In this document: positions 32,632 through 36,299 of the stretch, in pieces
Layout of the letters: the number at the start of each line of letters is the position of its first letter
Position numbering within the stretch: the stretch's first letter is position 1
Source of the DNA: Octopus vulgaris
Taxonomy: Eukaryota
Direction: 5' to 3'
Assembly (NCBI GenBank): GCA_951406725.2
Contig: OX597820.1
Coordinates: 124,992,001 to 125,056,000 of the forward strand
Length of the DNA: 64,000 nt
Made by a program: the position numbers and the translations under genes
The notes under the pieces: generated by a model
Database searches by the model: none
The model's input: the letters and a program-made list of their open reading frames with translations, nothing else
What the model was told of the DNA's origin: nothing

Positions 32632-32675
<44 letters not shown>

Positions 32676-32678
<3 letters not shown>

Positions 32679-33133
32679 AATATGGCTAACCCCTAAGGGT
32701 GGATGCTACTGTAGTTTTTAGCCCCAGGAAGACATCTCCCCCAGCTGGCTATATATACACTTTCTGTGTCCTCTCAGTATTTGCAAAGGGAAGCCATCCT
32801 TACCGTCTTCAACTTATGATACACAGGGACCCGAGATTCAAGGTATTGACCTATCATCAGCGTGTGACAATCACAGTTGTCGATAGGAAGGAGGTTCTCC
32901 TTACAAATACATATACTTTTTCCAGTGTTCATAAGTTGAAGACGGGAAGGATGGCTTCCCTTTGCAAATACTGAGAGGACACAGAAATTGTGTCTATAGC
33001 CAGCTGGAGGAGATGTCTTCCTGGGGCTAAAAACTACAGTAGCATCCACCCTTAGGGGTTAGCCATATTCAAATGGCATATTTACATCACGATGTGTTTC
33101 TGCTACTGTTGAAAACTCACTCTGATATTTATC

Positions 33134-33616: not shown

Positions 33617-33740
33617 ACACACACACCCACACAAACACACACACACACACACACACATGTATATATATATATAAATATAAATATAAGAAATTAAAAACGG
33701 AAAATACGCACACTTACACAGTTTTAATATCATTTTTAAT

Positions 33741-33775
33741 ATATCGACAGGTTTCGCTATCACTATTCATGATAT
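33741..33775 (-). ncRNA. Second, inverted copy of the A3:U8 hammerhead-like motif
   Basis: Minus strand: ATATC-ATGAATA-GT(GATA)GC-GAAA-CCTG-TC-GATAT; 5-bp stem I and the same variant core. Confidence 0.5.
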
Positions 33776-33980
33776 TATGTTTTACTTATTTGAATATATA
33801 TTTGGTCAATGCTTTGTGTGATGAAATTCACGAGTGAATGACTTCACAAGTAGATAAATAGAGGGAGTTAATTGGTTGTCGTTATTATTGTTATTGTTGT
33901 TGGTAAGAGAGATAATTGTTCAGCTTTCGGTAATGGGTGGGGATTTAAGAAAAAATATATATTAAAATAAATGAAACATA

Positions 33981-34015
33981 TTATCATGAATAGCGACAGC
34001 GAAACCGGTCGATAT
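33981..34015 (+). ncRNA. Minimal type I hammerhead-like motif with A3:U8 core covariation
   Basis: TTATC-ATGAATA-GC(GACA)GC-GAAA-CCGG-TC-GATAT. Palindromic stem III (ACCGGT), GUC triplet, stem I TATC/GATA; core A3 U4 G5 A6 A7 U8 A9. Confidence 0.55.
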
Positions 34016-34122
34016 ATTAAAAATTATATTATAACTATGTAACTGTGCGTATTTTTCTTTTTTAAATTCTTATATACATTACAACTCACCACGTAGGGAT
34101 AATCGAAATTCCTCTTTTCTGT

Positions 34123-34225
<103 letters not shown>

Positions 34226-35426: not shown

Positions 35427-36297
35427 CGTGTTATGATCTATAAGTATCCGCACTGTTGCCATGGTATCGAAGCTAAAGCAAACAGAGTGAAATTGCTTGG
35501 CACAGATTGACCTTGATTGCTATTGTGCATGAGCCCTTAGTTTTAACGTTCTAGCTTACTTCCGCTGTTTACAACAGTATTTGAAAGAAAGGTGTGCAGC
35601 GGTGTGATCATCACCTTAAAGATAGCAGTGAAAGTTGAGCAGAGAATCTTCATCAAATTTTGCCAATAGCTTGCCAATACTAGGTCAGAGACCTACACAA
35701 AGTTTTCAAAAGGTTTCCATCGATCACGACACAATTAAGGAGATATTGTGCTACTGAAAGGCAAGTGTCTTTTTGGTCGGCTGAATGCAGTTTTAGCACA
35801 CAATTGGCAGACACGCATCTCATACTCAAATCTTTTGTGATAATGGACTGAACTGAACCGAAACTAATCTGCACATTCTCCAATTACTCACGGATGGTGC
35901 TTCGACGATTTCCTCTCACAGCTGAAGGCACATCTGCGATGCTTGTCTCAATTCTGCCCGTTTCGTGTCTCCCAAAGCGTTCGTCAATATTGACATTTTT
36001 GCCGCCATCTTGGAAACATCTGAACCACTCGTACACTTGTGTGGGACTCATACAATTTCTGTGAGTTTCAGTAGGCCTCAGAGTTGGTATCGCCATGACA
36101 ACTTACTCTCTTATGATAAATGCAACGATCACACGCTACACAACTTCTTTCAAAGCACTACTATAAACAACAGAAGTGAGCTAGAACATTAAAACTTAGT
36201 GTGCATACACATCAGCATTCAAGTCCAATCAGTCCCAGGCGGCCTCACTCTGCGTGCGTTAGTGTCGTTACTATGACAACTGTCCCGATAATTATTG

Positions 36298-36299
<2 letters not shown>
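35427..36299. mobile_element. Mariner-derived foldback element: two 5' ends of one family in inverted orientation
   Basis: 35437-35640 is a diverged reverse complement of ~36095-36298. The + strand encodes a transposase start (KVEQRIFIKFCQ); the - strand encodes MSPTQVYEWFRCFQDG...NRRSTIRE...ISFGSVQSIITKDLSMRCVSA. Confidence 0.78.

Follow-up and report, generated by a model that had tools for sequence, protein, structure and literature searches.

An A3:U8 core pair in the minimal type I hammerhead motif of Penelope-like elements in Octopus vulgaris

The window analysed here is a 64,000-nt stretch of Octopus vulgaris DNA (assembly GCA_951406725.2, contig OX597820.1, positions 124,992,001 to 125,056,000 of the forward strand). 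It contains two hammerhead motifs in inverted arms (123 nt each, 89% complementary), and both motifs are parts of one 5′-truncated Penelope-like element (PLE), whose inverted pseudo-LTR and tail are included in its span of 33682 to ~34125. The native 3′ end of the element (3′ UTR/pseudo-LTR, its last 264 nt) lies on the minus strand at 33682–33945 and shares 85% identity (282 columns) with the 3′ region of L033, a family copy in which this region is downstream of the GIY-YIG frame. The coding sequence is gone from this copy; relative to a longer copy it has an 18-nt deletion, and a (TA)n/(CA)n microsatellite is present at its end. The plus-strand piece at 33945–34075 is an inverted, 5′-truncated pseudo-LTR of the same element, 89% identical to the L033 3′ region and 91 to 95% identical to 40 other best-scored genomic copies (of 1276 candidates). 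It is followed at 34076–34125 (plus strand) by a ~50-nt tail, which is present in this arm only, is common to many copies of the family, and runs into (TAC)n(TA)n. Family copies end at ~34079 or ~34130 on this scale. Microsatellites flank the window copy, and a tblastn search of the window with PLE protein gave no match. The PLE insertion anatomy described in PMC8557442 matches the window copy, and an optional one-ended tail is described both there and in PMC11167929. Two further inverted repeats in the window, at 32661–33087 (159-nt arms, 92%) and 35436–36299 (166-nt arms, 73%), gave neither a hammerhead match nor a PLE protein match and are probably other transposons.

In the plus arm, the minimal type I hammerhead motif occupies 33981–34015. 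Its core, AUGAAUA at 33986–33992, has A3 at 33986 and U8 at 33991. Stem I is formed by 33982–33985 and 34011–34014, and is only 4 bp long with a U.U mismatch at 33981/34015. Stem II (2 bp and a tetraloop) covers 33993–34000 and is followed by GAAA at 34001–34004; the stem III palindrome ACCGGU at 34004–34009 is intact, and the GUC triplet at 34008–34010 places the predicted cleavage at 34010/34011. The minus-arm motif (33741–33775) also has an A3:U8 core, at 33770–33764, with predicted cleavage at 33746/33745. Here stem I has 5 bp, stem II contains one U.G, and the stem III palindrome is broken (self-duplex at +1.6 vs −8.3 kcal/mol). The layout given for both arms in the first-pass annotation is thus reproduced, with cores, stems, GAAA and GUC in place. 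Its statement that all parts are correctly placed holds fully for the modal sequence of the family, not for the window copies, given the 4-bp stem I of the plus arm and the defects in stems III and II of the minus arm. When the window was scanned with a strict hammerhead pattern in which 3 and 8 could be any base, one match was found vs 0.2 per dinucleotide-type shuffle, so that a chance match is unlikely.

Folding of the arms as single strands gave no hammerhead and no unusual stability. As monomers, the hammerhead folds of the two arms are not favoured by free energy (z 0.19 and −0.85), which is expected of minimal hammerheads of the dimer type. The monomeric hammerhead fold comes out at an unfavourable +2.5 to +4.8 kcal/mol. 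Since the motifs lie on opposite strands, one RNA never carries both. Moreover, a transcript of 33681–34075 folds into a hairpin of −144.6 kcal/mol with the motif paired inside. The opposite strands and this hairpin rule out that the window arms serve as each other's active dimer. The "hammerhead pair" is a by-product of PLE insertion, i.e., of the inverted pseudo-LTR, and not a functional dimer. Both window copies are probably inert relics.

The nature of the element is clearer in other copies of its family (family A). In L033, the motif is preceded on its own strand by a GIY-YIG frame, and an inverted copy lies at the 5′ end of the locus. The 635-aa frame of L053 matches RVT_1 (E 1e-6; at 28.9 bits it narrowly misses the cut-off of 29.6) and GIY-YIG (28.8 bits, above the cut-off), the two being joined by a linker that is cysteine-rich as judged by eye. 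The motif is usually found ~270 to 290 nt past the end of the PLE frame. The combination of RT and C-terminal GIY-YIG that defines endonuclease-positive PLEs is present in the family, not in the window copy itself, and the family also displays the inverted pseudo-LTRs, 5′ truncation and optional tail of PLEs. Direct tandem pseudo-LTRs occur in the sister family L160 (3468 bp) and in L208, not in family A. Among six candidate regions no tandem family A element was found; the same-strand pairs L031 and L032 are local duplications without PLE frames, L158 and L159 likewise lack a PLE frame, and 11 copies with long frames have no direct upstream pseudo-LTR.

The closest named protein relatives of the element are from bivalve molluscs. 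It shares with Neptune/Nematis-type PLEs (PMC8557442) the RT, the cysteine-rich zinc-finger-like linker and the C-terminal GIY-YIG, together with 5′ truncation, the inverted pseudo-LTR, the one-ended tail and microsatellite flanks. The linker was recognised by eye and is common to Neptune and Nematis, and the tree contains no reference sequences. The tail here is ~50 nt long, not 30 to 40 nt, and in several relatives another frame of ~400 aa precedes the RT-endonuclease frame (L208:71–1372, L160 upstream of 3648, L161 from 3100). These extra frames gave no confident Pfam match; canonical PLEs, unlike these relatives, are described with a single ORF. A non-LTR retrozyme, which consists of short tandem non-coding repeats of ~170 to 400 nt that each bear a hammerhead, was considered and rejected, as copies of the family occur dispersed and in association with an RT-endonuclease frame, and the true arrays in the genome belong to other families. 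Such retrozyme-like tandem arrays of ~359 to 361 bp were seen at L080–L088, L090–L096 and L144–L147, with C3:G8 in one group and U3:A8 in another.

The same searches brought up further elements. At L165:1822–2056 and L165:7472–7705, direct repeats 5.65 kb apart each carry a U3:A8 motif with a longer stem II. The 470-aa frame between them encodes a CCHC zinc knuckle (PF00098) and does not match PLE protein, so that the whole may be a retroelement of a different class that bears hammerheads. L184, L189 and many further places belong to a young PLE family that has U3:A8, a 5-bp stem II and numerous identical open frames of 781 aa, and that is a good candidate for an active element. The PLE-like RT-GIY-YIG contigs L288–L294 lie within bacterial genome bins and are likely host or eukaryote contamination. 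In L181, a PLE that is ~38% identical, a canonical C3:G8 motif follows the endonuclease frame by ~600 nt, apparently with G at position 17 (by eye). At L254:116–150, a G3:C8 motif is located directly upstream of an 810-aa PLE-like frame in a single contig. Finally, in the matches of a small repeat family (G000:C1:4454815–4454845 and similar places) A3 is accompanied by G8 and stem III is not palindromic; they may represent a mis-registered core or something unrelated.

The first-pass annotation left it to be checked whether ATGAATA is the family consensus or copy-specific decay. A DNA search of the 2.8-Gb genome returned 1276 candidates, 40 of which were scored, and 29 of 30 loci contained a total of 34 motif matches, all A3:U8 (the window is among these loci, and one place is counted twice). 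An anchored pattern with positions 3, 7 and 8 free had 258 exact matches in the genome vs 0 for its reversed control, and among the first 100 listed, 97 read AUGAAUA and none had C3 or G8. With all seven core positions free, the matches rose to 659 (vs 0); the first 100 listed, counted by eye, comprised AUGAAUA in 86, A3 in 99 and U8 in 99, again with C3 or G8 in none. Contigs from four runs with four organism codes cover the motif, and the 40 matches listed out of 92 show no other core letter, an observation with no bearing on cleavage. A3:U8 is thus the norm throughout the family and not decay of one copy: AUGAAUA, not CUGANGA, is the family form. The variant was said to predate the inversion, which is right as to its greater age and understates it, since the fixation of A3:U8 extends to a clade of PLE families.

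The literal consensus with C3 and G8 (CUGANGA) is absent from the family. The other hallmarks of a hammerhead are present, i.e., three helices, U4, G5, A6 and A9, G12, A13 and A14, A15.1–U16.1 and H17, with helix III formed only as an intermolecular palindrome. The string cuganga serves as the hammerhead search descriptor in PMC8557442. Searches based on CUGANGA would overlook the A3:U8 form, as had been anticipated.

The 3:8 pair was then compared beyond the family. Counts with one genome-wide pattern in which only the core was varied (matches, not copy numbers, each with a reversed-pattern control; C3 with non-G8 and U3 with non-A8 left out) gave 904 matches vs 29 for A3:U8 with A at N7 and 331 vs 50 with C, G or U at N7. 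U3:A8 had 3591 matches vs 86 and C3:G8 had 384 vs 70. The count for A3 with a base other than U8 was 280 vs 172, and for G3 with any base at 8 it was 122 vs 232. The sister PLE family B keeps A3:U8 and has U at N7 and a different stem I, which is still paired through compensation. At five of five loci, its coding DNA is 76 to 83% alike to that of family A and 60 to 66% to that of families C and D, a comparison that doubled as a control for reference bias, the tree alignment being scaffolded on family A. Families C and D (~60% amino-acid identity) have U3:A8; in family C, stem II is likewise short and GC-closed, and stem III is of the CCGG form. N17 is C, U or A in the families compared (the scans excluded G at 17). 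In a third A3:U8 group, with a stem I of the UAGUC type, no PLE frame was found in 20 loci; a weak 32% fragment between inverted arms in L120/L121 was the only trace.

In 87 outside loci, a scan with positions 3 and 8 free produced 21 matches in 18 loci, and all 21 are Watson–Crick at 3:8 (C3:G8 in 17, U3:A8 in two, A3:U8 and G3:C8 in one each); shuffles gave 0.8 matches per pass, half of these paired. L208 (46% identical) is a tandem PLE with a period of 3699 and a C3:G8 core in the same architecture of 2-bp stem II, tetraloop and CCGG as in family A. L235 carries A3:U8 ~80 nt past the stop of an RT-GIY-YIG element, and its sister locus L233 (53% identical) carries U3:A8. L235, the independent A3:U8 case, and L254, the G3:C8 case, each rest on one contig, and shuffles gave ~0.15 such matches per pass for either. 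In an alignment of 13 motifs, which were hand-picked and related and whose search patterns prescribed GAAA and some of stem III, the inner four pairs of stem I are formed in 52 of 52 cells although both of their strands vary; the outer three positions are mostly unpaired, and 3:8 is paired in 13 of 13 (AU 10, CG 2, UA 1). The covariation score is 0.467 vs 0.199 in shuffles, none of 500 shuffles scored as high, and slid registers reached at most 0.164. Pairing between positions 3 and 8 is deduced from this covariation. The proposal of a natural hammerhead with covariant 3:8 is borne out to this extent: 3:8 and the stems covary across related PLEs, and the stems are kept.

These data bear on whether the motif could be a chance likeness, or a hammerhead that died by decay in a single master copy and then spread by passive amplification. 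Any mutation can be spread by one master element, decay is seen in both window copies, and the Rfam hammerhead models gave no match at the gathering threshold or at E ≤ 10. The Rfam models also missed the canonical C3:G8 motifs of L208 and L080, however, so that the negative result is uninformative. Moreover, A3:U8 persists among families that are 76 to 83% alike in coding DNA while stem I and N7 change, and the motif is at the expected position of a PLE. The A3:U8 matches with variant N7, family B, the 21 of 21 outside pairs and the covariation score all contradict decay or chance, which we regard as scarcely credible.

Alternatively, A3 might be fixed because A3-U4-G5 forms an AUG used in translation, U8 having followed by chance or by repair of the pair. 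The core does start with AUG, which opens a frame in the plus arm, and in an anole PLE the ORF starts inside the hammerhead (PMC11167929). Yet the frame is only 18 codons long (the copies covered do not include the 5′ stretch of family A from the tail to the first frame), the first long frame of a U3:A8 sister family begins ~200 nt past the motif, and a role of AUG leaves U3:A8, G3:C8 and the covariation of the stems unexplained. This explanation is accordingly very improbable.

Protein trees (22 rows, 539 columns, rooted at the midpoint with no true outgroup; L216, L260 and L286 left out) nest the A3:U8 families among U3:A8 families, beside C3:G8 relatives. The nesting recurs in a tree with a divergent outgroup (21 of 33 rows, alignment scaffolded on family A). 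A single origin of A3:U8 is rejected (p-AU 0.009), and a single clade of the U3:A8 families of the genome is rejected weakly (p 0.037, in a test named after the tree was seen). Parsimony suggests that the pair changed from C3:G8 to U3:A8 and from there to A3:U8, at least twice among PLEs.

From its sequence context, the motif is most probably a minimal type I hammerhead with an A3:U8 core in the PLE pseudo-LTR, a predicted self-cleaving ribozyme of tandem transcripts that is likely slow, dependent on dimers and possibly assisted by protein. In the hammerhead, the 2′-OH of residue 8 is the general acid. As this residue acts through its 2′-OH, its base would be free to vary if it is still paired. 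In a transcript that runs through two same-strand pseudo-LTRs, the two motifs would pair via the palindromic stem III, the pairing of A3 with U8 would position the 2′-OH of residue 8, and the RNA would be cut after GUC, ~65 nt before the usual end of the element. Przybilski and Hammann reportedly found in 2007 that one natural hammerhead tolerates every Watson–Crick 3:8 pair and that another prefers Y3:R8.

The element resembles the PLE minimal hammerheads of PMC4209133 in several respects. Both are located in the pseudo-LTR, have type I topology, a short helix I and G10.1–C11.1, and have a palindromic helix III that implies cleavage as dimers; both also occur mostly as solitary copies or as inverted copies 100 to 700 bp apart on opposite strands. 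They differ in the core (A3:U8 here, C3:G8 or the reported U3:A8 there), in helix II (2 bp and a tetraloop, not 6 to 8 bp) and in that no extra nucleotide lies between 9 and 10.1 here. The published motifs cleave weakly and only as dimers or multimers. Natural U3:A8 hammerheads have been published (PMC3088659; also PMC4209133, in the Schistosoma PLE Cercyon), and a U3:A8 core occurs in two sister families of this genome. These share with A3:U8 a compensatory change at 3:8 in nature, whereas the polarity is reversed here, with the purine at 3 and the pyrimidine at 8. No report of a natural A3:U8 was found in the literature searched, which was mainly open-access text, so that one may exist elsewhere in print. 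None appears in the parts searched of PMC6765202, PMC7229834, PMC2920678, PMC10085705, PMC13481778, PMC6155905 and bioRxiv 2026.07.22.740005, or in the searchable supplements of PMC4209133.

The main rival accepts a real fold under selection but holds that it has lost catalysis and serves as a structural handle for the protein of the element or for dimerising transcripts, with A3:U8 kept only for shape. The first-pass annotation states that compensatory double mutants at 3 and 8 partly rescue cleavage. For G3:C8 this is correct. In the Poseidon PLE hammerhead of Anolis (PAc), the C3G/G8C swap partly restores cleavage (PMC11167929), and when every pairwise combination of mutations was scanned in a type III hammerhead, the G:C swap alone gave rescue, all other double mutants in the region being low (PMC9901934). 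Natural U3:A8 is a further case in favour of compensation. For A3:U8 the claim is not borne out, as the scan implies low activity and thus speaks for a non-catalytic fold. The low set would, however, include natural U3:A8 too, so that a natural pair would fail the same test. PAc, too, is a PLE hammerhead, and one whose cleavage needs the PAc protein; it differs in that its natural core is C3:G8, it belongs to another PLE clade and its ORF starts in the motif. Mutating the PAc hammerhead left insertion in vitro unaffected, and RNA-seq showed no ends at its cut site (PMC11167929), which leaves the biological need for cleavage unproven and, again, is in line with a fold that has lost catalysis. 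Cervera and de la Peña left open functions besides cleavage (PMC4209133), and stem II is very short here. On the other hand, the cleavage triplet, G5, A6, A9 and GAAA are all kept, and 3:8, which is paired in the active conformation, is Watson–Crick in every lineage seen. A conserved non-catalytic fold is therefore an unlikely explanation, less so than the use of AUG or passive decay, and the catalytic reading is preferred.

Collectively, A3:U8 is a genuine variant of the minimal hammerhead of PLEs, one that extends over the whole family, has arisen more than once and is predicted to self-cleave. What appears to be new is a natural A3:U8; natural U3:A8 and the minimal hammerheads of PLEs were already known, and the finding extends this theme and defines no new class. 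C3 and G8 have been treated as near-invariant, and search descriptors rest on them. The occurrence of A3:U8 in several families, with more than 1,000 matches and with U3:A8 and C3:G8 kin of nearly the same architecture, indicates that the pair and not the bases is selected. The elements provide a natural series with which to gauge the cost of 3:8 polarity and its compensation by dimerisation or PLE protein, and they bear on whether PLE hammerheads must cleave at all. More tentatively, position 3:8 may covary freely in PLE hammerheads, with all four Watson–Crick pairs natural, A3:U8 arising repeatedly from U3:A8, and cleavage retained because dimerisation or the PLE protein eases the constraint that isolated ribozymes show at the core. 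If this somewhat doubtful scenario were true, CUGANGA-based censuses would miss most hammerheads in some genomes (here C3:G8 accounts for 384 of 5210 pattern matches with a Watson–Crick core), and some "hammerhead-less" PLEs may carry such variants.
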